From Kiritimatiellia bacterium (lineage in GTDB: Bacteria; Verrucomicrobiota; Kiritimatiellia; RFP12; UBA1067), in the NCBI GenBank assembly GCA_035353175.1, contig DAOPZC010000009.1, positions 27,304 to 91,303 of the forward strand: a stretch of DNA of 64,000 bases, in the 5' to 3' direction. Under the pieces are notes generated by a model. It was not told the DNA's origin. It saw only the letters and a program-made list of their open reading frames with translations, and searched no databases. Position 1 is the stretch's first letter, and each line of letters starts with the position of its first letter. This document shows, piece by piece, positions 40-41,628 of the stretch. A program made the position numbers and the translations under genes.

Positions 40-849
40 ATGAAAAGACTGGTCATGTCGGCAGTGATGTTCGCGGGGTTGACGGTTGGTTCTGTGATGG
101 CGCAGGATGCTGCGGCGCCTGCAGCGGCAGCACCTGCACCCGCCGCGGCGGCTGCCGGGCTTGAGGCGAATCCCGCTGCCGCAGGTGAGGCTGCAAAACC
201 CAAGAGCTCGGGGAAGACGGGTTTCTTCGCGGTGGTGTTCGGTTCCGGCTGGCTGGGTGTGGTGCTGTGGGCGGCGCTGTTCGGCTGCGGCGCGGCGGCC
301 ATCTATTTCATCGTGGACAGCTCGGTGATGGTCCGTCCCCAGAAGATCATGCCCCAGAGCCTGATCGACAAGGTCAAGGCCGGCATGGCCGAGGGCGACG
401 TGATGAAGGCCTTGCACGCCTGCGAGACCGAGCCGGGACCGATGGCGAACATCCTGTCCGCCGGTTTCTCCCACGTCGAAGAGGGCTTCGAAGTGATCCA
501 GGAGTCGATCGGCGCGGCCGCCGACCTGGAGACCGAGCGCATCATGCAGCGCCTCACGTGGATTTCCGTGTGCTCGAACCTGGCCCCGATGTTGGGTCTG
601 CTCGGCACGGTGCAAGGCATGATCATGTGTTTCGAAACGTTGGCGACCGGCGCCCCGGACGTCGGCTCGTTGGCGTTGGCCATTTCGCAGGCGCTGTGGA
701 CCACCGCCGGCGGCCTGTGCATCGCGATTCCCGCCATCACCTTCTACTACAGCATCCGCAACAACGCGAACCGGCTGATCCTGCGCATGCAGGCCATGAC
801 CATGGAGCTCATCAAGGACCTGCGCAACGTCGAAGTCGTGAATGACTAA
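40..849 (+). CDS. exbB: MotA/TolQ/ExbB-family proton channel (ExbB-like)
   Basis: 269 aa. N-terminal signal/TM segment with an Ala/Pro-rich region. Conserved MotA/TolQ/ExbB C-terminal core (LAPMLGLLGTVQGMI...ALWTTAGGLCIAIPA). Followed by two ExbD genes. Confidence 0.85.
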   Translation: MKRLVMSAVMFAGLTVGSVMAQDAAAPAAAAPAPAAAAAGLEANPAAAGEAAKPKSSGKTGFFAVVFGSGWLGVVLWAALFGCGAAAIYFIVDSSVMVRPQKIMPQSLIDKVKAGMAEGDVMKALHACETEPGPMANILSAGFSHVEEGFEVIQESIGAAADLETERIMQRLTWISVCSNLAPMLGLLGTVQGMIMCFETLATGAPDVGSLALAISQALWTTAGGLCIAIPAITFYYSIRNNANRLILRMQAMTMELIKDLRNVEVVND

Positions 850-1005: not shown

Positions 1006-1437
1006 ATGGCTAGAGGGTTATCAACACAACAGTGCGATTTGGACATGACGCCGATGATCGACGTCGTGTTCCAGCTGATCATTTTCTTTGTGGTCACGCT
1101 GAAAATGACATCGGACGTCAATCCGGACATCATTCTCGAAGACGGCAAGAACGGGGTGACGCTGACGCAGGACAATCTGCCGCCCAGCACGCTGGAGATC
1201 GAGCTGGACCGCCGGGGCCGCATCTCGATCCACAACGCGACGCTGAATGAGCGGCTCTTGGCGACGATGATCAAGAACCGGATCAACCGCCACGGCAACG
1301 AGTTTCCCGTCCTGATCCGGGCGGACCGCCGCACGCAGCACGAAAAGGTGCGCAAGGTCATGGACATCTGCACGGCGGCTGGCATCTGGAAGCTGTCGTT
1401 CGTCGCGGTTCAGGAGCACAAGGCGGCGAAAAAGTAG
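1006..1437 (+). CDS. exbD: Biopolymer transport protein ExbD/TolR (paralog 1)
   Basis: 143 aa. Hallmark N-terminal motif DMTPMIDVVFQLIIFF (ExbD/TolR TM helix), followed by a periplasmic domain. Confidence 0.8.
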   Translation: MARGLSTQQCDLDMTPMIDVVFQLIIFFVVTLKMTSDVNPDIILEDGKNGVTLTQDNLPPSTLEIELDRRGRISIHNATLNERLLATMIKNRINRHGNEFPVLIRADRRTQHEKVRKVMDICTAAGIWKLSFVAVQEHKAAKK

Positions 1438-1448
1438 GAGACGATCTT

Positions 1449-1856
1449 ATGGCTTACAAACGGAAAGAAAATAAGGGCGAGAGCCCGAAACTGGACATGA
1501 CGCCGATGATCGACGTCGTCTTCCAGCTCCTGATTTTCTTCGTGGTCACTCTGAAGCAGGAGGATATTCTCGCCAAGCTGTCGGCCGCCCGCCCCGCGCC
1601 GAACCAGGACGAGAAGGTCAAGGAGCAGCAGCAGGATCTGATCAACGTGATCGTGGCGCCGCAGGGCTTTCTTTTCAACGGCCGCCCCATGCGTCTGCCG
1701 GAGCTCGACCGCGCGATCGAGCGCCTGTCGGGCTACAGCAAGACCGCGATGGTGATCATCAAGTGTACCGCCGATTCGCCGCACGCCTTCCTTGTTCAGG
1801 TGTTGGACGTCTGCAACAAGCACGGCATGACCAACCTGTCGATCTTCAGCATGTAA
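1449..1856 (+). CDS. exbD: Biopolymer transport protein ExbD/TolR (paralog 2)
   Basis: 135 aa. Motif DMTPMIDVVFQLLIFF. Lies 12 bp after the preceding ExbD, so the cluster has two ExbD paralogs (AglQS- or exbD1/exbD2-like). Confidence 0.8.
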   Translation: MAYKRKENKGESPKLDMTPMIDVVFQLLIFFVVTLKQEDILAKLSAARPAPNQDEKVKEQQQDLINVIVAPQGFLFNGRPMRLPELDRAIERLSGYSKTAMVIIKCTADSPHAFLVQVLDVCNKHGMTNLSIFSM

Positions 1857-1866
1857 GGAATCAGAC

Positions 1867-3645
1867 ATGAGTAGCAATGTGGATATGACCGAGGTCGACT
1901 CGCATCTCGACGAGATCGCTCGGATGTACACGAACGAGACGTTGTTCCGGCGCATGAAGGTGCTGTTCTCCGGACTCAAGGCCCCCCGTCAGTCCAGAGA
2001 GTACAAGGTTGCGATGATCGAGGTGCAGCGTCTGGCGGCACCGTTCGCGGCCATTCTTCTCCCCGCGTTCGCCGTGGGCGTCTTGATGGTCATGTCGAGC
2101 GGCGCGGTGGTCCAGGACCGCATCATCGAGACGCAGGTGCTCGAGGCCGAAGAGGTGAAGGACCTCGACAAGATCGAAGAGTTCGAGAAGCCGGAAGAAC
2201 AGATGGAGGACGTCAACATCGACATCCCCATCAACAGCCCGAACGTCCAGGTGCAGTCCGATACGCCGAACAATCAGCCGATGAGCCCGCAGCCGCAGGC
2301 GTTCGACGCGGTGATGACGGTCAAGAGCCCGGTGATCCTCAAAAACATCTACGGCAGCACCCGCAACACCGGCACGCGCGGCACGCAGCTCGCCAAGTTC
2401 GGCGGCGACCGCATGACCGAAGACGCGGTGCTGCGCGCCCTGCGTTGGCTCAAGAAAAAACAGCAGACGGACGGCTCTTGGCCCGCACAGAAGGTGGCCA
2501 TGACCGGCTTGGCGGTCCTGACGTTCTTGGCGCACGGCGAGAAGCCGGGCGAGTCGGCGGAGTTCGGCGCGACGATCCAGAAGGCGCTGGAATTCCTGAT
2601 CAAGAGCCAGCGCGCCGACGGCAAGTTCAACGGCATGGACGGCAATGAATACGCCCACCCGATCGCGACGTATGCGCTCTGCGAGGCCTATGGCATGACG
2701 ATCAACCCGAACGTCAAGGTCGCGGCCGAGAAGGCGCTGGTGCCGATCATCAAGGGCCAGCATCCGACCGGCGGTTGGACCTACAAGATGGACCCCTCCG
2801 TCAACAACAGCAAAGAGCACGGCGAAGTCGGCAAGTACCGCGACGACACCTCCTACATGGGGTGGTGCGCGCAGGCGCTCAAAGCCGCCAAATTGGCTAA
2901 GCTGCACGCCGACGGCCTGGAGAAGGCGACCAAGCTCGCGGTCAAAGGCTTCAAGAAAAACGCCAGCCCGAACGGCGGCTTCGGCTACACCAGTCCGGGC
3001 ACCGGCGGCCTCACGAGCGTCGGCACCCTGTGCATGCAGCTGCTCGGCGCGTCGAATGAGGCGGAGGTGAAGAAATCGCTGGAGCTCATTGATGCTTGGA
3101 CGCCGTCCTTCTCGTCCTATGAGCCGGTCGAGGACGTGATCAAGCAGCTGAAGCCCGACGATTTGATCAAGCGCGATAAGAGCGGTAAGCCGACGCTCGA
3201 TAAAGACGGCAAGCAAGAGAAATTGACCCCTATCGCGGTGGCCAAGGATAAGCTTTCCCCGAAGGTTGATCCTGCCGAAAAGATGTTTTATTCCGCCTCG
3301 GCGCAATACTATTTCTACTATGCCACGCAGTGTAAGTTTCACCAAGGGGGCAAGCATTGGGAAAACTGGAACAAGGTCATGAAGCCGCGGTATGTCAAGG
3401 CGCAGCAGATCGAGAAGAACGCGATCAAGAACGACAAGGGCGTGGACTGTGACATCGGCTGGTGGGCGAATGCGGACACGATGAGCGACCGCCCCGTCAT
3501 GGACACTTGCCTGGCCGCGCTGCAGCTCATGGTCTATTACCGCTATCTGCCGACCACCAGCAAGGAAGCCGTGCAGGTTGAGGCGGAACTCGTGGCCACC
3601 TCCACCGACACCGAAGACATCAAGGTGGACACCGGGAATCTGTAA
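1867..3645 (+). CDS. Membrane-anchored protein with prenyltransferase/squalene-cyclase-like (alpha/alpha toroid) repeats, in the position usually held by TonB
   Basis: 592 aa. Single N-terminal TM helix (FAAILLPAFAVGVLMVMSS), then an acidic/Pro-Gln-rich linker. The C-terminal part has repeated DGSW/GGW-type motifs typical of terpene-cyclase/prenyltransferase-fold repeats: DGSWPAQKVAMTGLAVLTFLAHGEK, ADGKF, PTGGWTY, PNGGFGY. Starts 11 bp after exbD. Confidence 0.6.
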   Translation: MSSNVDMTEVDSHLDEIARMYTNETLFRRMKVLFSGLKAPRQSREYKVAMIEVQRLAAPFAAILLPAFAVGVLMVMSSGAVVQDRIIETQVLEAEEVKDLDKIEEFEKPEEQMEDVNIDIPINSPNVQVQSDTPNNQPMSPQPQAFDAVMTVKSPVILKNIYGSTRNTGTRGTQLAKFGGDRMTEDAVLRALRWLKKKQQTDGSWPAQKVAMTGLAVLTFLAHGEKPGESAEFGATIQKALEFLIKSQRADGKFNGMDGNEYAHPIATYALCEAYGMTINPNVKVAAEKALVPIIKGQHPTGGWTYKMDPSVNNSKEHGEVGKYRDDTSYMGWCAQALKAAKLAKLHADGLEKATKLAVKGFKKNASPNGGFGYTSPGTGGLTSVGTLCMQLLGASNEAEVKKSLELIDAWTPSFSSYEPVEDVIKQLKPDDLIKRDKSGKPTLDKDGKQEKLTPIAVAKDKLSPKVDPAEKMFYSASAQYYFYYATQCKFHQGGKHWENWNKVMKPRYVKAQQIEKNAIKNDKGVDCDIGWWANADTMSDRPVMDTCLAALQLMVYYRYLPTTSKEAVQVEAELVATSTDTEDIKVDTGNL

Positions 3646-3724
3646 GAAGTGCATTAGTTCGTTAGTGCATGAGTGCGGTTAACTAATAAACTAATGCACG
3701 ACTGAACGAACGCACTTCTTCATT

Positions 3725-4951
3725 ATGCCCTTTTCACTTTTTCTCGCGTTGAAATATCTCCGGCCGAAACGGTCGTTCACCTCGGTCGTGACGCTGATCT
3801 CGGTGGTCGGCGTGGTGCTGGGCGTGGCGATCATCATCATCGTGCGCGCGGTGATGACCGGCTTCGGCGACATGTGGAAAGAGAAGATCCTCGACTTCAA
3901 GCCGCACATCACCGTGTCGCCCGTGGGCGGCGGCGTCATTGAAGAGGAGGAGTCGGTCTGCAAGCGGCTGGAGATGGTGCCGGGGGTGATCGCCGCCTCG
4001 CCCGGGCTCGAAACGCGCGTGCTGGTCGAGCACCGCCGCCGCGTGGTCGCGCCGATCGTGATCGGCACCGACCCGCAGCGTGCCCGCCGCGTGATGAAGC
4101 TTGACCGCATGGCCGCGGGCGAGTTCAACATCGAGGGCGACTCGGTGGTGGTGGGCATCGATCTGGCCGCCGAGCTCGGGCTGATGGTGGGCGACGCGAT
4201 TCTGGTGTATTCGCCCATGAACCTCGTCACCAAGGACGAGGTCTATTTTCCCGAGCGTCTCACGATCACCGGCATCTTCGACTCCGGACAGCGCGACTTC
4301 GATTCCGGATTCATCGTGACCTCGATCGCCGTGGCCCGCGATCTGATGGGCATGAAGTCCGGCGTCTATTCGATCCACCTCAAGGTGGACGATCCGCAGA
4401 ACACCGCGCATTTCGGCAGAATCGTCAACGACGTCCGCATGCTGGTTCCCCGTCAGGCGGTCCGCACGTGGCAGGAGATCGACAGCCAGCTTTTCAACGC
4501 GCTCGCGGTGGAGAAAAACATGATGGTCATCCTGCTGATGTTCATCACGGTGGTGGCGATCTTCTGCGTGACCAACACGCTGATCGTGCTGACGGTCCAG
4601 AAGACGGACGAGATCGGGCTGCTCAAGGCGCTCGGTTTCTCGTCGCGGCAGGTGATGGGCGCCTTCGTGTTTCACGGCTGGATCCAGTGCCTCATCGGCA
4701 CCGCGCTGGGCATCGGCGCCGCCCTGCTGATCTTGGAAAACCTGCACGTGCTGGTGGCGTTTCTGGCGCGGCTCGGCGTAGAGGTGTTCCCCAAGAGCGT
4801 GTACGGGCTGGCGGAGATCCCGTGGCGCGTGATCCCGGGCGAGGTCGTGAGCGTCGCGGTTTCGGTGATCCTCTTCTGCACCGTGGCCAGTTTCCTGCCC
4901 GCCTGGCGCGCATCGCGCATGGATCCGGTGACGGCCCTGCGCAAGGAGTAG
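3725..4951 (+). CDS. lolF: Lipoprotein-release ABC transporter permease, FtsX-like family (LolC/E/F-type)
   Basis: 408 aa. N-terminal LKYLRPKR motif and TM1 typical of LolC/E. Large periplasmic domain. C-terminal FtsX-like 3-TM bundle ending ...AWRASRMDPVTALRKE. Confidence 0.8.
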   Translation: MPFSLFLALKYLRPKRSFTSVVTLISVVGVVLGVAIIIIVRAVMTGFGDMWKEKILDFKPHITVSPVGGGVIEEEESVCKRLEMVPGVIAASPGLETRVLVEHRRRVVAPIVIGTDPQRARRVMKLDRMAAGEFNIEGDSVVVGIDLAAELGLMVGDAILVYSPMNLVTKDEVYFPERLTITGIFDSGQRDFDSGFIVTSIAVARDLMGMKSGVYSIHLKVDDPQNTAHFGRIVNDVRMLVPRQAVRTWQEIDSQLFNALAVEKNMMVILLMFITVVAIFCVTNTLIVLTVQKTDEIGLLKALGFSSRQVMGAFVFHGWIQCLIGTALGIGAALLILENLHVLVAFLARLGVEVFPKSVYGLAEIPWRVIPGEVVSVAVSVILFCTVASFLPAWRASRMDPVTALRKE

Positions 4952-4988: not shown

Positions 4989-5666
4989 ATGTTAGAAGCA
5001 ACCAACCTGCATAAGACGTACATCCTGCCGCACAAGCGGGTCGACGTGCTGAAAGGCGCGTCGATCAGCGTGGGCAAAGGCGAGCGCGTGGCGATCGTGG
5101 GGCGCAGCGGCGCAGGCAAGAGCACGCTCCTGCACGTGCTGGGCGGCCTGGACCGGCCCGACGCCGGCGAGGTCAGCGTGGACGGCAAGCCGCTTTACGC
5201 GGTCTCGCAGCGGGTGCGCACGGCCGTGCGTGCGGCCAAGATCGGCTTCGTGTTCCAGTCCTACCACCTCCTGTCGGAAATGGACGTCACCGAGAACGTG
5301 ATGCTGCCCGCCATGACCGGCGTGCTGAACATCACGCGGGCGCAGATGCGGCAGCGCGCTTTGACGCTGCTGGAGCAGGTGGGCCTGGCCGACCGCGCCA
5401 CCCACATGCCGCTGGAGCTCTCCGGCGGTGAGCAGCAGCGCGTGGCCCTGGCGCGCGCGCTCATTCACGAGCCCGCGCTGATCCTCGCCGACGAGCCGAC
5501 CGGCAACCTCGACCGCATGACCGGCGCGCAGATCATGGAGCTGCTCTTCGGCCTCTCCTGCACGCGCGATCTGGCGTTGGTGATGGTGACCCATTCGCCC
5601 GAGACCGCCGCGCTGTGCGACCGCGTCATGGAGCTGCATGAGGGCTTGCTCGTTCCGCGGCCGTGA
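4989..5666 (+). CDS. lolD: Lipoprotein-release ABC transporter ATP-binding protein LolD
   Basis: 225 aa. Walker A GRSGAGKST, ABC signature LSGGEQQRVALARAL, Walker B ILADEPTGNLD. Begins with the typical LolD start (L.A.NL.K.Y). Confidence 0.85.
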   Translation: MLEATNLHKTYILPHKRVDVLKGASISVGKGERVAIVGRSGAGKSTLLHVLGGLDRPDAGEVSVDGKPLYAVSQRVRTAVRAAKIGFVFQSYHLLSEMDVTENVMLPAMTGVLNITRAQMRQRALTLLEQVGLADRATHMPLELSGGEQQRVALARALIHEPALILADEPTGNLDRMTGAQIMELLFGLSCTRDLALVMVTHSPETAALCDRVMELHEGLLVPRP

Positions 5667-5685: not shown

Positions 5686-6486
5686 TCACAAATCCCGCAG
5701 CCTGAAAATCAGGGTGAGACGGGCGAATGACGCCACCGGACGCCCGTCGCGGGCACCGGGCTTGAAGCGCGCCTGTTCCACGGCGCGCACCGCGGCGCGG
5801 TCGAGGTCCGGAAATCCGCTGGAGGACACCAGCGTGACGCCGGTTGTCCGCCCGTCCTCGCCCACCGACGCATCGAGAATGACCGTCCCCTCTTCGCCGC
5901 GCCGCCGCGCGCCGATGGGATAGGAGGGCCGGATCGGGCGGTCGAGCGAAGGATGGGCGTCGATGTGCCCCGCGGAGCCGGCCGCGCCGGCGTTCTCGCG
6001 TTGGCTGGCTCCGGGCACGGCCGGCGCGGGCTCGATGACGGCGGCGGCGGGTGCCGCTGCGGTTGGCGCGGGGGCCGTCTGGGCGGCCGGTGCGGGTTTG
6101 GGCTTCTCGGCCGGCGGAACGGGCTTGGCCACGGGGACGGGTGCCGGCACCGGCTTGGGCTCCGGAACGGCCTCCGGCTCGGGGATCGCGTCGGTGAAAT
6201 CGGGCTTTTCCTGGAGTTGCGGTTGCGCCGCCATTTCGGGAACGGGCTCGGGAAGCGGAAGCGGCGAAATCTCGGCGGCCGGCGCTTGCGCGGCCTTCGG
6301 CCCCGCGCCCGGCACGTCGGGCGCGATCTCGGTCAGCGTCAACTCCACCGCGGTCACTTCCAGCTCGGGGGCTGCCGTGGCCGGCGCGTCCCTGTGATGC
6401 ACGGCATAAAAACCCAGCAGCAGCAGCCCCGTGAGGTGCAGGGCGGCGGACAGGGTATAGCTCACGATATGGTCGGCAGAGAACAT
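5686..6486 (-). CDS. tonB: TonB energy transducer
   Basis: The six-frame ORF runs to 6987, but that extension overlaps the upstream exbD. The start used here is Met-168 of the ORF (MFSADHIVSY..., ATG at 6484-6486). Has an N-terminal TM helix, a long Pro-rich spacer (PEPVPE...PKPVPAPVPVAKPVPPAEKPKPAPA) and a TonB C-terminal domain (GEEGTVILDASVGEDGRTTGVTLVSSSGFPDLDRAAVRAVEQARFKP). Confidence 0.75.
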   Translation of the reverse strand: MFSADHIVSYTLSAALHLTGLLLLGFYAVHHRDAPATAAPELEVTAVELTLTEIAPDVPGAGPKAAQAPAAEISPLPLPEPVPEMAAQPQLQEKPDFTDAIPEPEAVPEPKPVPAPVPVAKPVPPAEKPKPAPAAQTAPAPTAAAPAAAVIEPAPAVPGASQRENAGAAGSAGHIDAHPSLDRPIRPSYPIGARRRGEEGTVILDASVGEDGRTTGVTLVSSSGFPDLDRAAVRAVEQARFKPGARDGRPVASFARLTLIFRLRDL

Positions 6487-6575
6487 GGGGTAAAGCGCGG
6501 TCAGTTCATTGGGCGTCCGTTTTTCATGCGTGGGGCGCGGGCGGAAAGTCTGTGCGGCGGTGTGGGAGCCTTGGG

Positions 6576-6980
6576 CTACTTCGCCTCGCCGCTGACCTGG
6601 AACGCGACGCGTTCCACGCCGCCGTTCTTGAGCTTGCCCAGCAGCTCGATGCCGGTGCCGAGCGAGGCCGCCTTGTCGGCGCTGATGAGCACGGGCGTGG
6701 CGCTTTCGCGCCAGAGCTTGACGGTGGCGATCACCAGCTCGTCGAGCGGCATGGCTTGCTTGTTCAGGAGCAGGCGGTTGTCGGCGGCCAATGTGATGAT
6801 CGTCTGCTCCCCTTTCTGCTGCACCCCTTTGGCGGCGGGCAGGTCCACTTTCAGGCCGCGGTGGACCGACATGGAGAAGATCGAGTAGACGAAGACGACC
6901 AGGATCAGAAACATGACGTCCATGAGGGAGATCATTTCCATCCGGGCCTTGCGGTCTTCGTATCCTGAGCTCAGGCGCAT
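6576..6980 (-). CDS. exbD: Biopolymer transport protein ExbD/TolR
   Basis: 134 aa. N-terminal TM helix (ISLMDVMFLILVVFV). Periplasmic ExbD domain. Confidence 0.85.
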   Translation of the reverse strand: MRLSSGYEDRKARMEMISLMDVMFLILVVFVYSIFSMSVHRGLKVDLPAAKGVQQKGEQTIITLAADNRLLLNKQAMPLDELVIATVKLWRESATPVLISADKAASLGTGIELLGKLKNGGVERVAFQVSGEAK

Positions 6981-6983
6981 GGT

Positions 6984-7691
6984 TCACTCTCCCGGTTGGC
7001 CGGCGCGCGCGTTCAGGCTGACGCCGGTGTTGTAGGCGAGCTCGAAGTGGTGGATGGCCTGTTCAAGCTCCGTGGTGCGGCGCTTGAGCTGCGAGACCAG
7101 GAAGTTGAAGGGAAAGAGGCAGGCGATGGCCACGATCAGGCCGGCGGCGGTGGTGATCAGCGCCTCGGCGATGCCCGCCGTGGCGCCGGCCGGATTTTCC
7201 ATGCCCGCCGCGTTGAGCATGTTGAAGGTGTTGATGATGCCGGTGACCGTGCCGAGAATGCCGAGCATGGGGGCGACGGTGATCGAGGTGTCGAGGACCG
7301 AGAGCCCTCGGCGCAGGTGGTCCAGCTCCAGCTGCGACGCGGCCTCCAGCGTCTCTTGGAAGCCCGCCGTGCGGTTCTCGAGAGCCTGCGCGAAAACGCG
7401 GCAGACCGGCGAATCGGCCTGTTTTGCGGCGGCGAGGGCTTCGTCGAATTTGCCCTCGCGGGTGAGCCCGATGAGCGCCTTCTGTTTGTGGCGGAAATAG
7501 AAATTGGCGGTGTTGTACTTCCAGAAGGCGAAGAGGCGCTCGAACGTCACGGCGAGCCCCATGAACGAGCAGACCAGGATCGGCCACATGACCGGCCCGC
7601 CGCGGTCGAAGAGCGCGAAGGCCGCGTCGAAAAGGCCCTGCGGCGCCGCGGGGGCGGCCTGGGCGAGAAAAGAAGAGCAAAACATCATCAA
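6984..7691 (-). CDS. exbB: MotA/TolQ/ExbB-family proton channel
   Basis: 235 aa. Conserved core APMLGILGTVTGIINTF...ALITTAAGLIVAI. First gene of an exbB-exbD-tonB operon on the minus strand. Confidence 0.85.
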   Translation of the reverse strand: MMMFCSSFLAQAAPAAPQGLFDAAFALFDRGGPVMWPILVCSFMGLAVTFERLFAFWKYNTANFYFRHKQKALIGLTREGKFDEALAAAKQADSPVCRVFAQALENRTAGFQETLEAASQLELDHLRRGLSVLDTSITVAPMLGILGTVTGIINTFNMLNAAGMENPAGATAGIAEALITTAAGLIVAIACLFPFNFLVSQLKRRTTELEQAIHHFELAYNTGVSLNARAGQPGE

Positions 7692-7759: not shown

Positions 7760-8740
7760 TCACATGACCTTCATTTTGGGCAGGTCCTGGATGTCCACGT
7801 AGCCGACCAGACGGCCTTCCGCGTCGACCACCGGCAGGTCATCGATCTTGTATTTCTCGAAGATGCGCAGCACATCGACGGCGAAGGCCTCGTCGCACAC
7901 CGACACGGGCTTATGGGTCATGACGGCGTGGACGGGGCTGCGGAGGATGTCTTTGCCTTCGGAAAGCTGGCGGCGCAGGTCGCCGTCCGTGAAGATGCCG
8001 GCCAGGCGTCCGTCGGGATGGGCAACCAGCGCGGCGCCGCTCTTTGCGGTCGTCATGGCCATGATGGCGTCCATGATGGTGGCCGAGAGCGGCAGCGTGG
8101 CCAGCCGCTCGCCGGTGCGCATGATGTCGCGGACGCGCAGCACGAGGGCCCGGCCGATCGCGCCGGCGGGGTGCAGGCGGGCGTAGCTCTCCTTGTTGAA
8201 GTGACGGGCCTCGATCAGCACCATGGCGAGCGCGTCGCCGACGGCCATGGTGGCGGTGGTGCTGGTGGTGGGCGCCATGCCGAAGGGGCACGCCTCCTTG
8301 CCGATGCGGACGCAGAGCACCACGTCGCTCAGGCGGGCGAGCGTGCTGTCCGGATTGCCGACCATGCCGATGATGCGGATGCCGAGACGGCGCACGGCGG
8401 GGATGAGTTTGATGACCTCGTCGGATTCGCCGGAGAAACTGAGCGCCAGCAGCACGTCGTTCTCGGCGATCATGCCGAGGTCGCCGTGCATGGCCTGGAT
8501 CGGGTTCATGACCACGCTGGTCGAGCCGGTGCTGGCGAGGGTGGCGGAAAGCTTTTCGGCGATGTGCAGGTTTTTGCCGACGCCGGTCACGACGATCTTG
8601 CCGCCGTTGTCGAGGGTTTCGAGAATCAGGCGCACCGTGGCGAGAAAATCTTCGCCCAGCGCGGCCTGCGCGGTGCGGAGGCCCTCGATTTCGGTGTCAA
8701 GAACCTGCCATGCGCGAGAAAGGATCGCTGCGTTATCCAT
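7760..8740 (-). CDS. kdsD: Arabinose-5-phosphate isomerase (KpsF/GutQ/KdsD family; SIS plus tandem CBS domains)
   Basis: SIS domain motifs (GKIVVTGVGKNLHIAEKLSATL...VLLALSFSGESDE). C-terminal CBS pair. Start chosen at MDNAAILS (ATG at 8740) rather than the ORF start at 8824. Confidence 0.8.
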   Translation of the reverse strand: MDNAAILSRAWQVLDTEIEGLRTAQAALGEDFLATVRLILETLDNGGKIVVTGVGKNLHIAEKLSATLASTGSTSVVMNPIQAMHGDLGMIAENDVLLALSFSGESDEVIKLIPAVRRLGIRIIGMVGNPDSTLARLSDVVLCVRIGKEACPFGMAPTTSTTATMAVGDALAMVLIEARHFNKESYARLHPAGAIGRALVLRVRDIMRTGERLATLPLSATIMDAIMAMTTAKSGAALVAHPDGRLAGIFTDGDLRRQLSEGKDILRSPVHAVMTHKPVSVCDEAFAVDVLRIFEKYKIDDLPVVDAEGRLVGYVDIQDLPKMKVM

Positions 8741-8945
8741 AAAAAACGTTCGGTTTTGAGGTTGATTCAGGCGGCGCCGGACCGGTGCCGCCGGCTTTGA
8801 ATGTCGGCTTTCAGTGTAGCGCAAAGGGCGGCGGGCGCAAAAGGTCTTTTTTCATCTTGTGCAGACCGCGGGGTGGGAATAAAATACAACACCGGTAGGG
8901 GATAAACACGGCACAACGGTCACGGTTAAAAGAAAGGAACGCGCC

Positions 8946-9354: not shown

Positions 9355-10460
9355 TTAAGGGGAGGCGTCGCGCCATACCTCGTCGTACACCGCGAGGGTT
9401 TTCGTCACCATCTGGTCGAGCGAGAACCGGGCGAGAATGTCTTCCCGCAGGCCGGAGAACGCGGCGGTTGACGCCCGCACCAGCCGGTCGGCGAGCTGCG
9501 CCTCGTCGCCCGGCTCGACCAGCCACCCGTTGAAGCCCTCGCGGACGATGTCCAGGGCGCCTCCGAAGCGCGTTGCGATCACCGGGCACCCCATCGCCAG
9601 CGCCTCGGCCATCGAGCGCCCGAACGACTCGGGCTTGGCGCGGTTGCCGGAGACGAGCACGTGGCCGCAGGCGTAAATCTCGGCGACTTTGCTCTGGCTG
9701 CCCGCGAAGGCGACGTGGCCGCCCAAGCCCAGTTCAGCCACCAGCTTCCGCAGCGCCTGCTCGTGGCCGGCGCGCGTCGCCTCCGCGCCGCCCACGATCA
9801 CGGTCTTGATCCGCGGGTTTGTCGCGCGCGCCAGGGCCGTGGCCCGGATGAGCGCGTCGTAGCCCTTGAGCGGCGTGATGCGTCCGACGCCCAGCACCAC
9901 GAAGCGCCCCTCCAGCCCATGGCGGCTCCGGAAGTCCGCCATGAACGCCGCGTCGAGCCGCGCCGGATCGAAGAGCTGCGGGTCGATGCCGCGCGGCACG
10001 AGCCGGATCTTTTCCGGGGGCGTCCCGTAGTGCTCGCGGATGTAGTCCACGACGGAGGTGCTGGGGCAGATCACCCGCTGGCCCGCGGTCATGATCCGGC
10101 TGTAGGCGCTCACGCTGTTGAAGCCGTGGACCGTGGAGACGAAGGGCAGCCGCAGGGGGCGGTTGGCCAGCACGAAGAGCCAGCCCGGCACGCGGCTGCG
10201 GTAGTGCACCAGGTCCGGCCTCAGGGCTTTGAGCGCGCGGCGCAGGGCCAGCACCCGCTGCGGGACCGTGAGCGGATTCTTCGATTTCACGTCCAGCGTC
10301 AGGTGCCGTCCGCCGTCGCGCTCGACCGTCCCGGCCAAGTGTCCGCCGCTGGAGATGACGGTGCTGACGAGGCCGCGCCTGACGAATTCGCGGTTGAGCT
10401 CGACGGTGCCCCGCTCGACGCCGCCCTCCTCGAGCGCCGGAAGGATCTGGAGAATGTGCA
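9355..10460 (-). CDS. Glycosyltransferase family 4 (GT-B, GT1/GT4 superfamily)
   Basis: Start taken at MHILQILPALEEGGVE, the typical GT4 N-terminus. C-terminal E-x7-E region (GSQSKVAEIY...ESFGRSMAEALAMGCPVIATRFGG). The start position is uncertain within 2 nt. Confidence 0.8.
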
Positions 10461-10751
10461 TGCCGGGTATGATACAGGGTTTGGGGGGCGGGGGGCAAGG
10501 TGTCGCGTGGCTCAAGGATGGGAACGGGCGTGATTCAACTGTGTTGCATCCACACCCGAAGGAGAAATATGGGCGGAGAAGTGAGGAGTTCCAACACCTC
10601 GGAGACGAAGAGCGCGTACGATACGCATTTCACCGTCGCAATACTTGACTTCCCGCATGAGAAATCACAGAATGAAACGAATTTTTGTCGCATCAAGCGG
10701 GTAACGATGTGATATGTCCAAAGACGGGGGTCGTGAAAGGAAGTCCGAGTC

Positions 10752-13700
10752 ATGAGCGTATGGCGATGGGGAACGGTTCTTTTGATTTCTGCGGTATTTT
10801 CGGCGCAGGCGATTGAGTCGAACGGCGTGCTGCTTGTCGAAGTGAAGGCGTCGTCGCTTTCCGGTCTGGGAAACAATGCGGCGGTGGCGGCGTGGGCCAA
10901 TACGGGAACGCTGGGTGGGAATTTCGTGCCGGCGGTCAGCGGGCAGGGCGCGGTCTATCAGGACAGCGTCGGGGGCGCGCCGGCCGTGACGTTCGCGGCG
11001 TCGGCGAACTCGATCATGACCAACACCGTGCCGCCGCCTTCGTCTATTCTGAGCAACAACATCTGGAGTGCGGAGATCTGGGTGCTCAACCCGAGCCTGC
11101 AAGGCGCGGAAGACCAGTTCGCGTGGACCGACCGCGAGAACTGGACCGGGTCTGCGGACGGCACGTGCATGGAGATCCGCTACTGCGCCGACACCGCGAA
11201 CGCGGTGGAGCATCATAACGGCACCTGCAATATCCCCTGGACCAACTCGCTTCCTACGGCCGGCGTGTGGCACCACATCGCCGTCACGCGCTCGGCGGAC
11301 GGCTCCGAGCGCCTCTATGCCGACGGCGTGCTGTGCACGACCAAGACGCCGGCGGTGAGCAACCTGCGCGGCGGCGCGCCGTTCGCGATGGGCGGCGTGT
11401 GGAACCGGGCCACGAATGATTGGCAGATGCTCTTCAGCGGCTCGCTGGCACAGGTGCGCGTGCACAGCGGCACCCTGAGCGGGGCGCAGGTCCTCAGCAA
11501 CTTCCTGGAAGAGCGCGAGACCTACCATGCGATCTGGAACGGCGCGCCGGGAACGGAACAGGCGTGGGAGAACAGCGCCAACTGGCTCTCGAACAACGCG
11601 GCCGAAAGCGGCTCGACGGCATGGATCACGAACGGGGGCTTCGCCGTCCTCTCCGGCGACCTGTCGCTGAACCATCTCTATCCGACGGCGGGTGGACTTG
11701 CCGTGAGGAACGGCGCCAAGCTGACGCTCGAAGGTGCCGACAACGTCTACATGGCAAGCACGAACAATTTCGCCCTGAGCGTCGAGGACGGCCTTTTCGC
11801 CATAAACGGCAACGGGACAACGAATCTTTACATGGGCCAGTTCGGCGGCGACGCGGCCGTCACGGTCGGGGTTTCCGGGGCCTCGGCGACACTTGAGGTG
11901 CCCCGCGACACGGTTCTGGCGAACAGCAGCGGCAGCGCGGGCGCGATGACGGTCGGCCCTGGCGGCGGCGTGTACAACTCCAACGGCTGGTTCTATGTGG
12001 CGAACAACGTCGGCGCGCAGGGAGCGTTGACGGTCAACGGCGGCACGCTCGGGTTCCGCACGGCGGACAAAGCCTTCGTCGTGAACGCGAACGGCGCGCG
12101 CGGCGAGGTGACGGTCAACAGCGGCGCAATCAGCGCGACCGGTGATTTCAAATGGTCCAACGGCACCGCGAACAACACATCTTACGGCAAGGCTCAGCTC
12201 AACGGCGGCACGGTCGAAGGCAAGCGGTTCTTCGCCGACAGCACGGCGGGCACGAACCTGCTCTATCTGAACGGCGGCACGGTCAAGGCCCGGGTCTCGG
12301 CCAGCGATTTCCTGTACAACCTTACGGGCGCATATGTCCAGAACGGCGGCGCGGTTTTCGAAATTCCGGCGGGCGCGACGGTGACGGCCGCGCAGGCGCT
12401 GCTGGCGGACGCCGGCAGCACGGGCGGCCTGACGAAACTCGGCGCGGGCCGCATCACCTTCGCGGGAACCAATACGTTTACGGGGGCGCTCGACGTGCAA
12501 GGCGGCGACCTCTTCTTCAGCCACGTCAGCGGACTCGCCGCCGGCTTTGGCGGCGCGGTGTCGGTGGCCAACGGGGGGTCCATCGGCTACAATACGGTCG
12601 GCGGCGCGTCGCTGCTGAACGGCTTGTTGACGGCCGGCTCCTCGGGCTACCTGACGCTCTGTCCCAGCAACGCGGCGGACAGCGTGACGTTCGCCGCGCT
12701 GCCCAACATGAAGCTCGCCTTCCAGGGGCTCGCCCGCTACACCGGCACGTTCACGCCCTATCAGAACCAGTACGTCTTCGAAGTCGAAGGGACGACGGTG
12801 ACCAACGGCGCGACGTTGGCGGACGGCGCGACGAACGGCCACCTGAGCGTGACCGGCGTTTCGGGCGGCGGAATGGTGCTGACCGGCAACAACACGTATA
12901 GCGGCGGCACGGAGGTCGACGCGGCGACGGTGACGCTCGGCCACGCCAACGCGCTCGGCGTGCAGGCCCAGCCCGGTTCGCCGGACATCATCCTGCGCAA
13001 CGGCGCGTCGCTGCGCTTTGTGGCGGACATGGATATCAACGCGCTGGTGACCGGCCGCCTGGACACCGCCTCCAACGGTATCCTGCTGGTGGGCGCGGCC
13101 AACGCGGCCAAGAGCATCGATCTCAGCCGCCACCCCGGGATCGTGGTGGGCTCCGCCGACGCGAGCCTGGACTACACCGGTACGCTCACGCTTTCGCCTG
13201 CGAGCGACGCCTATCGCCTCGGCGGCGGCAGCCCGACGTACAACGGCACGCCGAACCGCGGCTTCTCGGTCAACAACCTCACGGACGGCACCGAGGCCCG
13301 CAAGGTGGTGATCGGAACGCCTGGCCTTGTGGAGCTCAAGGCCGGCAACTCCTACTCCGGCGGAACCGTCGTCACGAACCGCGGCGTCCTCTTCATCAAG
13401 GAAGACGGCCTGGGCGCGGTCCCGGCCACGCCCGAGGCGGGGGCCGATAACCTCTATGTGAGCAACGGCGTGGTCCGCGCCGGCAACGCGAACTTCACGC
13501 TGCCTCCTAACCGCGGCATCCACGTCGCGGCAGGAACCGGCGGCATGGAGCTCCACCCGTGGGGCGGTTACTCGATGACGGTGGCGGGCAATCTCTCCGG
13601 CTCCGGCCCGATCACGGTGACGGACACCGGCTGGGTCACCTTCGGCGGCGCGGCCAACACGTACAGCGGCCTGCTGGACATCAGCGGCGGCCGCAACATC

Positions 13701-16700
13701 CGCATCGGCGACGGCGCGAACTTCAGCTGGTCGCCGTCCGGCACCTTCACGCTCAACGGCATGCTGGCGCTCAAGAGCGACGGCTCGGTGGCGTTCAGCA
13801 ACGCGCTCGCCGGCGCCGGCTCGCTGCGCAAGGAGGGCGCGGGCGATCTGACGCTTGCCGGAGCGAAAACGTACGGCGGCGTCACCTATGTCGACGCCGG
13901 CTCGCTCAAGGTCGCGGCCACCAACGTGCTGCCGCGCGGCGCGGGCAAAGGCGTGGTGCAGATCGCGGCGGGCGCGGGGCTCGAGGCCAACGGCGCCGAT
14001 CTGCTGGTCGGCGGCCTGCAGGGCGCGGGCGCGGTGGCGAACGGGCCCGCCACGCCGGCGACGCTCTACGTCGGTGAGACCAACGTCAACGCGACGTTCG
14101 GCGGCGCGGTCGATCCTTCGCTCACACTGGTCAAGATCGGCGCGGGCAAACAGGCGCTCACCAACGCGGTCGGCGCGGCGGCCGATGTCGAGGTCCAGGC
14201 GGGCACGCTGGAGCTCTTCGGCGCGGCGGCGGTCACCGGCACCGTGACGCTTGCCGGCGGCACGCTCGGCGTGACCTACGGCGGCAACGGCCTGACGGGC
14301 AGGTACTATCAGCTGGCTGTGCCGCCGGTCACGAGCGACTTCGTCTCGTATGCGGCGGTCACCAACTTCCTGAACGGCAAGACGCCGTCGGTGGTCAGCA
14401 ACAGCCTCGCTTTCGGCGCGACCTTCAATCCCGGCGTCAGCTCGGCCGGCAACCAGACCGGCGCGCGCTTCCCGGCGCCGTTCAACGCCTATAACACGAG
14501 CAACTTCGCGGTGCTCTGGTCGGGCCTCTTCTTTGCGCCCGTGGCGGGCGACTACGGCTTCGCGACCGCCAGCGACGACGGCAGCATGGTTTTCATCGAC
14601 GGCCAGACGGCGCTCAACAACAACGCCATGCAGAGCTACACGGCGGCGGAAAGCAACACGGTCGGCACGGTGACGCTCGCGGCGGGCCTGCACCAGATCG
14701 ACATCGCCTACTACGAGGCGGGCGGCGACCAGGGCGTGACCGTGTGGGTCAAACAGCCGGGCGCGGCCTCCGTGGCGGAGCTGCCGCAGTCGCTGCTCTT
14801 CACCGGGCTCGACACGGGCGCCGCGCGGATCGGCGCGCTGGCCGGCAGCAAGGGGCGCGTCGCGTTCGCGGCGGCCGGCCTGCCCGAGCTGCGAGTCACC
14901 GGCGAGGGCGACATGGCCTACGGGGGCGCGATCCTCGGATCGAACGCGCTCAGCCGCCTGGTCAAGGAGGGCAGCGGCACGCTGGCGCTCTCCTCGCCGC
15001 AGAGCGATTTCTACGGGGTGCTGGATATCCGGGCGGGCGTGCTGGCGCTGACTAACGGGCCTGCCACGCTCGGCACGCTGTCCATGGCGGAAGGCGTCCG
15101 CGCGAACGTGTCGGGCCTCGCCGGGCTGAACATGTGGTTCTACAACCGCTCGGCGTCCGACGCCAACTACAGCGAGTTTCAATCCCTGGCCGCATGGGAG
15201 TCCTATGTCAGCGAGTTCTTCTCGGGCGGCCCGGGCTATGTCACCAACTCGCTGGTGCTCGGTGCCAATCTGGACACCGGCGCGTCGGGCGAGTACTGGC
15301 CCGCGCCCTACAAGCAGTCGGGCGGCTCCGAGGCCGACACCTATGACGCCTACCTCTTCGGCCGCATCTATCTGGACCGTTCGGGCACCTATACCTTCGC
15401 GACGGCCAGCGACGACGGCAGCATGCTCTACATCGACCGGACGCTGGTCGTGAACAACGGCTATGACCAGGGCGTGACGACGCGTTCCGGCACGATCGCG
15501 CTGACCGCCGGTTTCCACACCATCGACATCCTCTACCGCGAGAACACGGGCGGCAACGCGCTGCGCGTGTCCATCGGCTACCCGGGCCAGGCGCTCACGC
15601 TGATGCCGCAGTCGATCCTCTTCGGCGGCGCCGCGCTGCGCGGGCTCGCGGGCGAAGCGGGCAGCGTCGTGAGTCTGCTCCCCGACGCCTTGCTGGTGCT
15701 GGACCAGAACGCGGACACGCGACATGCGGGCGCGATTGCGGGCGACGCCTCGACGAGCGTTCAGAAGAACGGCGCCGGCACGCTGACGTTGACCGACGAG
15801 AACGACGGTTTCGCGGGCTTGTACCGGATCGTCACCGGCGCGCTTCGCGTCGGTGACGGCGGCGCGACCGGCGCGCTCGGGCCGGCCGCTTCGGTGCGGA
15901 TCGAGGCGGCGGGCACGCTGGTCTTCGACCGCGCGGGAACGGTGACGGTGAGCGGCCCGCTGGCCGGCACCGGCCGGATCGTGCTGGACGGACCGGGCGA
16001 GGTCTATGTGACGTCGACCAACGCCTTCGCCGGCACCGTGGTCATCAACGACGGGCGGCTGACGTTCGCGCCCGGCGCGACGCTGGGCCCGGCGGCCGTG
16101 GTGACCAACGCGGCCACGCTCGAGGTCGAGACCGCGGGGACGCGGCTGCAGAGCGGCGTCATGGCGGGCCTCGCGGGCAGCGGCGACCTCGCGGTGAGCG
16201 GGACCGGCACGCTGGCGCTGAACAACAGCAACGCCGACTTCACGGGCACGACGCACGTGTTCACCGGCGTGACGGTGCGCGTGTCGCGGCCTGCCAACCT
16301 GGGCGGCCTCGGCGACGTGGCGCTCGACGGCGGCACGCTGGCCGTGCTGCCCGACGTCGAGCAGGGCACGAACGTGATGGTCTCCGCGCTGGACACGAAC
16401 ACCTGGAAGCGGAACGGCGCGGCGGTGTGGACCAATCGCTACGACAGCCAGTGGCTGCAGCTCACGCCGAACACCGGCAGCCAGGCCGGCAGCGCCTTCT
16501 GCACCAACCGGGTCGGATGCAGCGCGCCTTGGTACGCGGTCTTCCGCTATGAGGTCGGTGCCCATTCGGCCGGGGCCGCGGACGGTGTTTCCTTCGTCCT
16601 GCAGAACGACACGGACGGCGCGTCCGCGCTCGGCGCCAACGGCGGGCAGTTGGGGGTCGACACCATCGCGCCGTCGATCGGCGTGTTCATCAACATCTAT

Positions 16701-17513
16701 AACACGCCGTCGGTGGGCTGGATCGTCAACGGTTCGAGGGTCGATGCGGTGACGGCGCTCAACGGCATCATCCCGCTCAACGGCATGGACGTGGCGCTCT
16801 CGTATGATGGCGTGGCGTTGAAGCTGACGCTGACCCAGGGCGAGAACACCTACACCGCCACGCGCGCGGTGGACCTTGCGGCGACCTTCGGCGGGAGCCC
16901 GGTGTACGTCGGGTTCACCGGCGGCACGGGCGGCGCCACGGCGCAGCAGTTCGTCGGCAACTTCTCGATGTACGACGCGGTGCCGACCTCGACCGACTTC
17001 GGCAACACGTTGGCCGTCGCCGACGGTTTGACGGGCAACCTCGCCGCCAGCGTGGTCAGCGACGACCTCTCGATCGGCTTTGCGGGCCTGAACCTCGGCG
17101 CAGGGGCGGCGCTCAACATCACCGCCGGCGTCGGCTCCAGGGCGAACACCGGCTATACGGTCGCGGTCAGCAACCTGACGGTCGCGGCCGGCACCGGCAC
17201 GGTGCATGTGGCGGCCAACGGCGCGGCCGCCGGCGTGCTGGGGCTTGACCGGCTCACGCTCGGCAGCGGCGCGCGGCTGGTCGTCACTGGCGCGGTCTCG
17301 GTGCCCGGCGGCGTCTTGACGGTCGTCGTTCCGACGCCGGTGCCGCAGGGCGTCACCCACCTCGCCGACTTCACCGGCGCGACGTGGGTCGGCGGTCAGC
17401 CGACCATCGTGCTGGTGGACGCGGCGGGCAACCCGATCGACGCGACGGTCACGCTGCACAACGGCCTGCTCTACATCAACACCGTTCAGGGCACGGTCAT
17501 CCGGATCCGGTAA
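10752..17513 (+). CDS. Giant secreted multidomain surface protein (2253 aa): N-terminal LamG/concanavalin-like domain, autotransporter-associated beta-strand (beta-helix) repeats, two PA14 domains, C-terminal legume-lectin-like domain
   Basis: Signal peptide MSVWRWGTVLLISAVFSAQA|IE. LamG-like region (WHHIAVTRSADGSERLYADGVL). Many GGTV/NGGTL/GAGxLTLxG beta-helix repeats. PA14-like segments (GDYGFATASDDGSMVFIDG and GTYTFATASDDGSMLYIDR). Lectin-like C-terminal region (VSFVLQNDTDGASALGANGGQLGV). RBS gaaaggaag upstream of the start. Confidence 0.85.
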   Translation: MSVWRWGTVLLISAVFSAQAIESNGVLLVEVKASSLSGLGNNAAVAAWANTGTLGGNFVPAVSGQGAVYQDSVGGAPAVTFAASANSIMTNTVPPPSSILSNNIWSAEIWVLNPSLQGAEDQFAWTDRENWTGSADGTCMEIRYCADTANAVEHHNGTCNIPWTNSLPTAGVWHHIAVTRSADGSERLYADGVLCTTKTPAVSNLRGGAPFAMGGVWNRATNDWQMLFSGSLAQVRVHSGTLSGAQVLSNFLEERETYHAIWNGAPGTEQAWENSANWLSNNAAESGSTAWITNGGFAVLSGDLSLNHLYPTAGGLAVRNGAKLTLEGADNVYMASTNNFALSVEDGLFAINGNGTTNLYMGQFGGDAAVTVGVSGASATLEVPRDTVLANSSGSAGAMTVGPGGGVYNSNGWFYVANNVGAQGALTVNGGTLGFRTADKAFVVNANGARGEVTVNSGAISATGDFKWSNGTANNTSYGKAQLNGGTVEGKRFFADSTAGTNLLYLNGGTVKARVSASDFLYNLTGAYVQNGGAVFEIPAGATVTAAQALLADAGSTGGLTKLGAGRITFAGTNTFTGALDVQGGDLFFSHVSGLAAGFGGAVSVANGGSIGYNTVGGASLLNGLLTAGSSGYLTLCPSNAADSVTFAALPNMKLAFQGLARYTGTFTPYQNQYVFEVEGTTVTNGATLADGATNGHLSVTGVSGGGMVLTGNNTYSGGTEVDAATVTLGHANALGVQAQPGSPDIILRNGASLRFVADMDINALVTGRLDTASNGILLVGAANAAKSIDLSRHPGIVVGSADASLDYTGTLTLSPASDAYRLGGGSPTYNGTPNRGFSVNNLTDGTEARKVVIGTPGLVELKAGNSYSGGTVVTNRGVLFIKEDGLGAVPATPEAGADNLYVSNGVVRAGNANFTLPPNRGIHVAAGTGGMELHPWGGYSMTVAGNLSGSGPITVTDTGWVTFGGAANTYSGLLDISGGRNIRIGDGANFSWSPSGTFTLNGMLALKSDGSVAFSNALAGAGSLRKEGAGDLTLAGAKTYGGVTYVDAGSLKVAATNVLPRGAGKGVVQIAAGAGLEANGADLLVGGLQGAGAVANGPATPATLYVGETNVNATFGGAVDPSLTLVKIGAGKQALTNAVGAAADVEVQAGTLELFGAAAVTGTVTLAGGTLGVTYGGNGLTGRYYQLAVPPVTSDFVSYAAVTNFLNGKTPSVVSNSLAFGATFNPGVSSAGNQTGARFPAPFNAYNTSNFAVLWSGLFFAPVAGDYGFATASDDGSMVFIDGQTALNNNAMQSYTAAESNTVGTVTLAAGLHQIDIAYYEAGGDQGVTVWVKQPGAASVAELPQSLLFTGLDTGAARIGALAGSKGRVAFAAAGLPELRVTGEGDMAYGGAILGSNALSRLVKEGSGTLALSSPQSDFYGVLDIRAGVLALTNGPATLGTLSMAEGVRANVSGLAGLNMWFYNRSASDANYSEFQSLAAWESYVSEFFSGGPGYVTNSLVLGANLDTGASGEYWPAPYKQSGGSEADTYDAYLFGRIYLDRSGTYTFATASDDGSMLYIDRTLVVNNGYDQGVTTRSGTIALTAGFHTIDILYRENTGGNALRVSIGYPGQALTLMPQSILFGGAALRGLAGEAGSVVSLLPDALLVLDQNADTRHAGAIAGDASTSVQKNGAGTLTLTDENDGFAGLYRIVTGALRVGDGGATGALGPAASVRIEAAGTLVFDRAGTVTVSGPLAGTGRIVLDGPGEVYVTSTNAFAGTVVINDGRLTFAPGATLGPAAVVTNAATLEVETAGTRLQSGVMAGLAGSGDLAVSGTGTLALNNSNADFTGTTHVFTGVTVRVSRPANLGGLGDVALDGGTLAVLPDVEQGTNVMVSALDTNTWKRNGAAVWTNRYDSQWLQLTPNTGSQAGSAFCTNRVGCSAPWYAVFRYEVGAHSAGAADGVSFVLQNDTDGASALGANGGQLGVDTIAPSIGVFINIYNTPSVGWIVNGSRVDAVTALNGIIPLNGMDVALSYDGVALKLTLTQGENTYTATRAVDLAATFGGSPVYVGFTGGTGGATAQQFVGNFSMYDAVPTSTDFGNTLAVADGLTGNLAASVVSDDLSIGFAGLNLGAGAALNITAGVGSRANTGYTVAVSNLTVAAGTGTVHVAANGAAAGVLGLDRLTLGSGARLVVTGAVSVPGGVLTVVVPTPVPQGVTHLADFTGATWVGGQPTIVLVDAAGNPIDATVTLHNGLLYINTVQGTVIRIR

Positions 17514-41466: not shown

Positions 41467-41628
41467 GAAACTAGATCAAGGTTGCGGTGAAGGACATGAA
41501 GATGGCGGACCGTTAAACGGGGTCTCTCTTAATGTCCTTCACCCGGACCTCATGCGGTCAAGGGCGATGGGGTCATGGAGGCGGAACCTGCTGGAGCGAA
41601 CCGTGAACAGGAGTTGAAGGTGCTGAGA

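Follow-up and report, generated by a model that had tools for sequence, protein, structure and literature searches.

The 64,000-nucleotide stretch analysed here (the window) comes from contig DAOPZC010000009.1 of a Kiritimatiellia bacterium (GenBank assembly GCA_035353175.1, positions 27,304 to 91,303 of the forward strand). Its first genes encode one ExbB-type and two ExbD-type motor proteins, and directly behind them stands the gene under study, which encodes a 592-aa protein with an alpha/alpha-toroid domain (the toroid gene, Table 1). An earlier note, made from the letters alone, had described the order exbB-exbD-exbD followed by a 592-aa protein, and every element of it was recovered by Pfam at those positions. 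The gap of 11 bp given for the space before the toroid gene was correct in kind and not in size: it measures 10 nt and contains an AAGGA ribosome-binding site, and the gap between the two ExbD genes (A1 and A2) is 11 nt. The ExbB protein of this cluster (ExbB_A) has a signal-peptide-like N-terminus and an extension rich in Ala and Pro, which make it a "long" form. Its top NCBIfam match is TolQ (4.4e-19, under the cut-off of that model), and the motor proteins of the window have TolQ and TolR as their best-scoring models, yet below the cut-offs. The transmembrane (TM) aspartate is kept in A1 and A2, both of which read MTPMIDVVFQ, and the two are different ExbD proteins (phmmer 1e-11). With a MotA_ExbB protein and ExbD proteins carrying the TM Asp, the upstream genes qualify as a predicted motor of the ExbB-ExbD/TolQ-TolR kind. 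The 156-nt gap between the ExbB_A and A1 genes, within the presumed operon, holds a GC-rich terminator-like hairpin with a T-run at 912-942, which may act as an attenuator or in the processing of the transcript.

The canonical exbB-exbD-tonB operon that the earlier note had placed 2 kb away was found downstream of the toroid gene on the minus strand (5686-7691) and was used for comparison. ExbB_A and the second ExbB of the window are separate paralogues, related by phmmer at 6.7e-15 only, and the motor proteins of the toroid cluster are clearly distinct from the canonical set, as expected of an additional paralogous module.

Table 1. Positions of the features discussed, in window coordinates
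Feature	Position	Strand	Basis or remark
MotA_ExbB-family gene (ExbB/TolQ-like, ExbB_A, 269 aa)	40-849	+	Pfam MotA_ExbB 5.8e-26
ExbD/TolR paralogue A1 (143 aa)	1006-1437	+	Pfam ExbD 1.5e-20
ExbD/TolR paralogue A2 (135 aa)	1449-1856	+	Pfam ExbD 1.2e-20
Toroid gene (592 aa)	1867-3645	+	Pfam SQHop_cyclase_C 5.6e-9
Cytoplasmic N-terminal module, aa 1-55	1867-2031	+	R29, G36, P40, Y46, E52, R55 invariant in alignment
Single TM helix, aa 56-78	2032-2100	+	Hydropathy maximum; AlphaFold2 helix 44-77
Acidic disordered periplasmic linker, aa 79-168	2101-2370	+	17 D/E, 8 P, 8 Q in 90 residues; pLDDT ~30
D-box-like strand motif IETQVLE, aa 87-93	2125-2145	+	Alternating hydrophobic/polar pattern
(alpha/alpha)6 toroid domain, aa 169-560	2371-3546	+	
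Acidic disordered tail, aa 561-592, and stop codon	3547-3645	+	Ends in strand-like DIKVDTGNL
Stable hairpin after toroid gene	3641-3722	+	Minimum free energy -28.9 kcal/mol, z -3.98, 0/200 shuffles as stable
LolC/E-like permease	3725-4951	+	Pfam FtsX, MacB_PCD and ABC_tran for this gene and the next together
LolD-like ATPase	4989-5666	+	See preceding row
Canonical tonB	5686-6486	-	TonB_C 6.7e-21
Canonical exbD	6576-6980	-	Pfam ExbD 5.3e-20
Canonical exbB	6984-7691	-	Pfam MotA_ExbB 1.8e-30

The hydropathy and charge profile of the 592-aa protein has Lys/Arg before the TM segment and Asp/Glu after it, which fits an N-in orientation. The TonB-like topology attributed to this protein was confirmed for the one TM helix and the acidic/Pro-Gln linker, but not for the "short" N-terminus, which is a strongly conserved module of 55 aa; this module is conserved in copies linked to the motor genes, in orphan and in tandem copies, and occurs in 90 of 149 family representatives. 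The AlphaFold2 (AF2) model, built from a 38-sequence alignment, consisted of a long helix at aa 44-77 and six helical hairpins at aa 180-556 with a confidence score (pLDDT) of about 85-95, and aa 78-168 and 560-592 were disordered. The sole significant Pfam family in the protein was SQHop_cyclase_C (5.6e-9, aa 234-346); TonB_C (PF03544) gave no match at E <= 0.01 in the search in which the canonical TonB scored 6.7e-21. The motifs DGSW (aa 202-205), GGW (302-304) and GGFGY (370-374), to which the earlier note had pointed, are present and invariant across the family. The claim of an alpha/alpha-toroid repeat domain is right, because the AF2 six-hairpin domain and the SQHop_cyclase_C match agree and TonB_C is missing: AF2 and Pfam give an all-helical toroid where TonB has its C-terminal domain, not the TonB C-terminal-like domain that had been named as the alternative outcome.

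Conservation of the gene cluster

The conservation survey covered Kiritimatiellia-type metagenome-assembled genomes (MAGs) and a few metagenomic contigs. A scan of one genome per species yielded 332 relatives, the best 80 loci were used, all of them from one broad MAG lineage, and linkage was counted for those toroid genes that had 2.3 kb or more of sequence upstream (n=76). ExbB, ExbD and ExbD were found directly upstream in 50 of these 76 testable genes, and seven further full-length toroid copies are tandem or extra copies within the same cluster. The window starts inside the operon, and two periplasmic TPR (tetratricopeptide repeat) genes are cut off, as seen in contig L003 (97-98% identical to the window), where two TPR proteins of 1090 and 276 aa, each with a signal peptide, are encoded just upstream. 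A large TPR gene precedes 50 of the 52 ExbB genes, and a small one 45 of 50. The full unit is a six-gene operon composed of a large and a small periplasmic TPR gene, the long ExbB/TolQ-like gene, two ExbD/TolR genes and the toroid gene. One open reading frame in L003 (595-1800) was dropped as an apparent antisense artefact.

Linkage to the motor genes covers the deepest branches of a neighbour-joining (NJ) tree, at 38-42% identity. Toroid copies without it are nested within linked branches and are therefore paralogues; linked and unlinked copies also share assemblies, L003 and L030 belonging to one MAG and L026 and L043 to one chromosome. The order exbB-exbD-exbD-toroid, for which a survey of PVC (Planctomycetes-Verrucomicrobia-Chlamydiae) genomes had been suggested, is thus conserved across Kiritimatiellia-type genomes (50/76), and the toroid gene did not turn out to lack co-conservation with exbBD, since linkage reaches the deepest NJ branches. 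In a search for ExbB_A homologues the top 120 matches were all close relatives at least 72% identical, so that it did not extend to the output genes behind related motors in other phyla. Two or three tandem toroid genes follow the motor in L059 (6289-11738), L080 (6805-11854), L062 and L073, and the second tandem copies have a Pro-rich linker and no D-box-like motif (see below).

The toroid gene could also be an unrelated neighbour whose adjacency to the motor genes is inherited synteny without functional meaning. The origin of all 80 loci in one broad MAG lineage would agree with this, and so would the LolE/LolD-like genes further downstream, whose synteny is also common, yet is broken by 2.7 kb in L003, so that synteny alone can mislead. 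This explanation is nevertheless very unlikely because of the domain fusions described below and the deep conservation of gene order: adjacency holds down to 35-42% identity and in clusters whose toroid proteins have another type of N-terminus, the toroid gene stands 10 nt behind the ExbD gene, and L066 has gained a further ExbD-toroid pair that lacks an ExbB gene.

The membrane-proximal region and coupling to the motor

In TonB the D-box is a strand clamped by the ExbD dimer (PMC10907165, from which its definition was taken), and it is positioned 10-15 residues after the TM helix (PMC12905483). A D-box-like motif (hydrophobic-polar-hydrophobic-polar-hydrophobic-hydrophobic-polar) begins 9 residues past the TM helix of the 592-aa protein, and in the family its residues vary while the pattern holds (IETQVLE, VKVEILE, VDVEYLE, INVEIAQ, VAVEIVE). 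Of 85 distinct sequences, 58 have the pattern at one and the same column of the alignment, as against 4.9 expected from shuffles, and the same regular expression applied to E. coli TonB returned only ISVTMVT, the known D-box. Residues 87-93 are therefore a candidate for the D-box of the TonB family, as a match of pattern, and their position agrees with the published one. Next to this motif, E52 and R55 just before the helix and P59, A62 and P66 within it are conserved on one helical face. The A62-x3-P66 spacing resembles the S-x3-H of TonB-type helices, but counting from the D-box puts it one position out of register.

A representative search returned 9,444 clusters at E <= 1e-3, and the best 149 representatives were examined. 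At least 19 of these 149 carry a TonB/TolA-type helix, GP-x-G-S-x3-H, instead of the N-terminal module of the window protein. The three of these that could be placed in their gene context (P0255, P0257 and P0221, of the GPTGSxxxH type, e.g. GPTGSVILH) are all encoded in clusters with the order large TPR-small TPR-ExbB-ExbD-ExbD-toroid. In these distant, orthologous clusters (L091, L094 and L095), the ExbB protein is 60% identical to ExbB_A and 25% to the second ExbB of the window, and the ExbD genes match A1 and A2 one-to-one and in order. The N-termini of the SHLS-type (Ser-x3-His) toroid proteins were not covered by any family in a Pfam scan, and searching with a profile of just the N-terminal module (aa 22-100), to find other C-terminal domains, gave three short fragments only. 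The first TM helix of ExbB_A has G84, A87, Y89 and F90 within aa 84-90 (window 289-309) in motors paired with His-less toroids, whereas the three motors paired with SxxxH toroids have S, G, A/W and L at ExbB 84, 87, 89 and 90; these changes may mark a co-adapted docking site, with n=3 on one side and confounding by phylogeny.

The C-terminal tail consists of an acidic spacer and a terminal alternating hydrophobic strand (DIKVDTGNL here; DEIVIEVI and DDVEIEVI elsewhere; P0122-P0269), and D584, I585 and L592 are conserved in the alignment. The tail is present in the membrane-anchored forms, in 64 of 90 proteins with the window-type N-terminus and 15 of 19 of the SxxxH type, as compared to 14 of the remaining 40, and it is missing from most signal-peptide-type soluble paralogues. 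The terminal strand resembles both the D-box and the TonB box, and we infer that the TPR proteins are candidate partners of the tail.

Two relatives join ExbD and toroid sequences in one protein. P0236 has a Pfam ExbD domain (31.9 bits, above the cut-off) fused to the toroid, and the N-terminus of P0247, 36% identical to the ExbD A1 of the window, is likewise fused to a toroid and is preceded by a secreted ExbD A2-like gene. These ExbD-domain fusions, together with the ExbD-toroid gene pair, argue for direct contact between motor and toroid. They also bear on the explanation that the 592-aa protein is a membrane-anchored periplasmic enzyme, acting for example on a glycan or an isoprenoid lipid, which is co-transcribed with the motor and serves one pathway with it without physical coupling. 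An enzyme would agree with the many invariant aromatic and polar residues of the family alignment, with weak pectate-lyase hidden Markov model matches and with the neighbourhoods of relatives, which are rich in glycoside hydrolases. Besides the argument for contact, the membrane-proximal strand motif and the conserved cytoplasmic module would be unexpected for a simple signal anchor, YRDD stands in place of DxDD, and Prenyltrans (PF00432) gave no match at E <= 0.01. The DxDD(TA) motif was not found in the window protein, the only candidate being Y324-R325-D326-D327-T328-S329, in which Y324 is nearly invariant. A catalytic toroid was rejected as the main explanation for lack of DxDD and because the scores for the cyclase families fall far short of the cut-offs, and we regard the uncoupled enzyme as improbable.

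On balance it appears probable to us that the 592-aa protein is the output component, analogous to TonB or TolA, of a dedicated proton-driven motor of the ExbB-ExbD type. This energy-transducing interpretation is supported so far as sequence and comparative evidence go; force transduction itself, and its target, we infer. The TM helix of the toroid protein would dock outside the ExbB ring, and the strand motif at aa 87-93 would be clamped between the periplasmic domains of ExbD A1 and A2, as the TonB D-box is. Proton flow would then pull or reposition the linker of about 90 residues and the toroid domain, which may hold a ligand or partner near the peptidoglycan or the outer membrane, and candidates for making contact at the far end are the strand-like tail at the C-terminus and both TPR proteins. 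The TonB_C domain binds TonB boxes, and because the 592-aa protein has no TonB_C domain, our best guess for the task is an envelope function (Tol-like maintenance, or glycan or lipid handling) rather than TonB-box-dependent import.

Several observations weigh against an output role of the toroid protein. Its TM helix (aa 56-78) contains no His, so the SHLS motif is not formed, and A62 and P66 stand in place of the SHLS Ser and His; the TM helix of the canonical TonB of the window reads SAALH, i.e. SxxxH. The D-box pattern is short and matches 8.8% of the 30-residue windows taken from other parts of these proteins. Unlinked paralogues were present in 21 of the 80 loci, the more distant relative P0244 is unlinked, and so are the SHLS-type toroid proteins P0263 and P0269; related sequences within the counts are not independent events. 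In P0168, moreover, the same toroid domain follows a Ser/Thr protein kinase, and in P0143 it follows a zf-HC2 anti-sigma module.

These two settings, and an unlinked paralogue (L002, 11641-13007) lying directly upstream of a gene pair for an ECF (extracytoplasmic function) sigma factor and a zf-HC2 anti-sigma protein, suggest that the toroid may be a ligand-binding sensor domain elsewhere. The toroid could accordingly sit in the motor complex as a ligand-sensing or regulatory subunit, which gates or anchors the motor on binding a periplasmic molecule and transduces no force. The kinase and anti-sigma fusions, the sigma-factor pair beside the L002 paralogue and the TM helix without histidine would all be consistent with such a subunit. 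The toroids of orthologous clusters, however, have an SxxxH helix and a D-box-like motif, which are hallmarks of a pulled component, and a role of reaching and binding is what a long disordered linker and a conserved tail at the C-terminus would suit. We therefore hold a purely sensory or regulatory role to be rather unlikely.

If the 592-aa protein is an output component, the cluster might represent a third functional class of proton-driven trans-envelope machine beside Ton and Tol, a proposal that we make only tentatively. Such a machine would be a 5:2 motor with an ExbD heterodimer, pulling on an alpha/alpha-toroid "hand" that holds a glycan, lipid or partner protein, with the two giant TPR proteins and the C-terminal strand as far-end coupling. 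Its role in Kiritimatiellia might be to stand in for the missing TolA function, or to power uptake independent of TonB-dependent transporters.

The operon end and neighbouring genes

The stable hairpin behind the toroid gene (3641-3722) is likely the end of the operon. Collinearity of the window with L003 ends at the toroid stop codon; beyond it the window has a 70-nt AT-rich hairpin spacer (3645-3724), and L003 has about 2.7 kb more at exactly that point (9779-12474), including a gene for a CitMHS-family transporter; the operon-end spacer is an indel hot-spot. About 35 linked loci have LolE/LolD-like genes downstream of the toroid gene, and the distant clusters L091 and L094 are without them. 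Because of the hairpin, the 2.7-kb insertion in L003 and this absence, they were ruled out as part of the unit and are treated as neighbours.

Further genes of the window encode giant predicted surface or secreted proteins: one of 2253 aa with PA14, PATR and lectin domains (10752-17513), one of 3467 aa with laminin-G, PKD and TSP3 repeats (31063-41466), and one of 1534 aa, a thermolysin-type M4 peptidase that carries MAM and He_PIG domains (41575-46179). A 1068-aa protein encoded at 25701-28907 joins a fucose pyrophosphorylase domain to a GHMP kinase, for fucose salvage, and a KpsF/GutQ-like protein with SIS and CBS domains (7760-8824) adjoins the canonical exbB.

Comparison with known systems

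The relatives of the 592-aa protein are named "terpene cyclase/mutase family protein" at NCBI, and this name is probably wrong. Cyclase models scored the protein far below their cut-offs (TIGR01787, 36.9 bits vs 322.7; TIGR01507, 25.8 vs 431.1). Class II terpene cyclases have a two-toroid architecture, whereas the window protein has, in the model, one toroid and is predicted to be periplasmic and tethered to the membrane. Foldseek found farnesyltransferase beta only at 1.3e-4 (TM-score 0.41), and no prenyltransferase alpha-subunit gene was found near the toroid gene. Several thousand proteins of the "terpene cyclase/mutase family" are thus probably mis-named envelope proteins.

The 592-aa protein shares with TonB the place of its gene after exbB-exbD, a single N-in TM helix, the strand motif and a long flexible periplasmic linker, and its distant orthologues keep the SxxxH helix. 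It differs from TonB in lacking TonB_C and the TM His, and in having an acidic linker rather than a Pro-rich rod, and its operon has two different ExbD genes and two TPR genes. The toroid operon also resembles the TolA system: it encodes periplasmic TPR proteins, as tol-pal encodes CpoB, and its neighbours belong to envelope biogenesis (LolCDE-like genes in the window, LptD in L091). On the other hand, the toroid protein is without TolA domain III, the TPR proteins of the toroid clusters (1090 aa) are much larger than CpoB, and the flanks that were examined contained neither tolB nor pal.

The closest counterpart is found in PVC bacteria, where vWA-type proteins encoded behind TPR-tolQ-tolR-tolR were proposed as a new class of force transducer by Williams-Jones et al. 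(2025, Mol Biol Evol, PMC12204202), with Tichowtungia aerotolerans (Kiritimatiellota) among the examples. A toroid-type transducer is not mentioned in that paper, in its supplement or in a 2026 review, nor was one found by full-text literature searches. As in the toroid cluster, a gene for a TPR protein, one tolQ-like gene and two different tolR-like genes precede the gene for the transducer, and the vWA transducers and the toroid protein belong to the same superphylum. They differ in the C-terminal fold, which is vWA in the former; the window protein has no vWA Pfam match and an (alpha/alpha)6 toroid in its model. The vWA proteins keep the histidine of the SHLS motif (SIGIH), whereas the window protein is without it and has in addition the conserved cytoplasmic module of 55 aa. 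The usual view is that Ton and Tol motors work through a single kind of output protein, namely TonB or TolA. The toroids with and without a TonB-type His helix, and the fusions of an ExbD domain with the toroid head, may serve as natural experiments on the coupling of head and motor. If true, the occurrence of another output domain unlike TonB, the second after vWA, in this type of operon would make these motors general engines with exchangeable heads.

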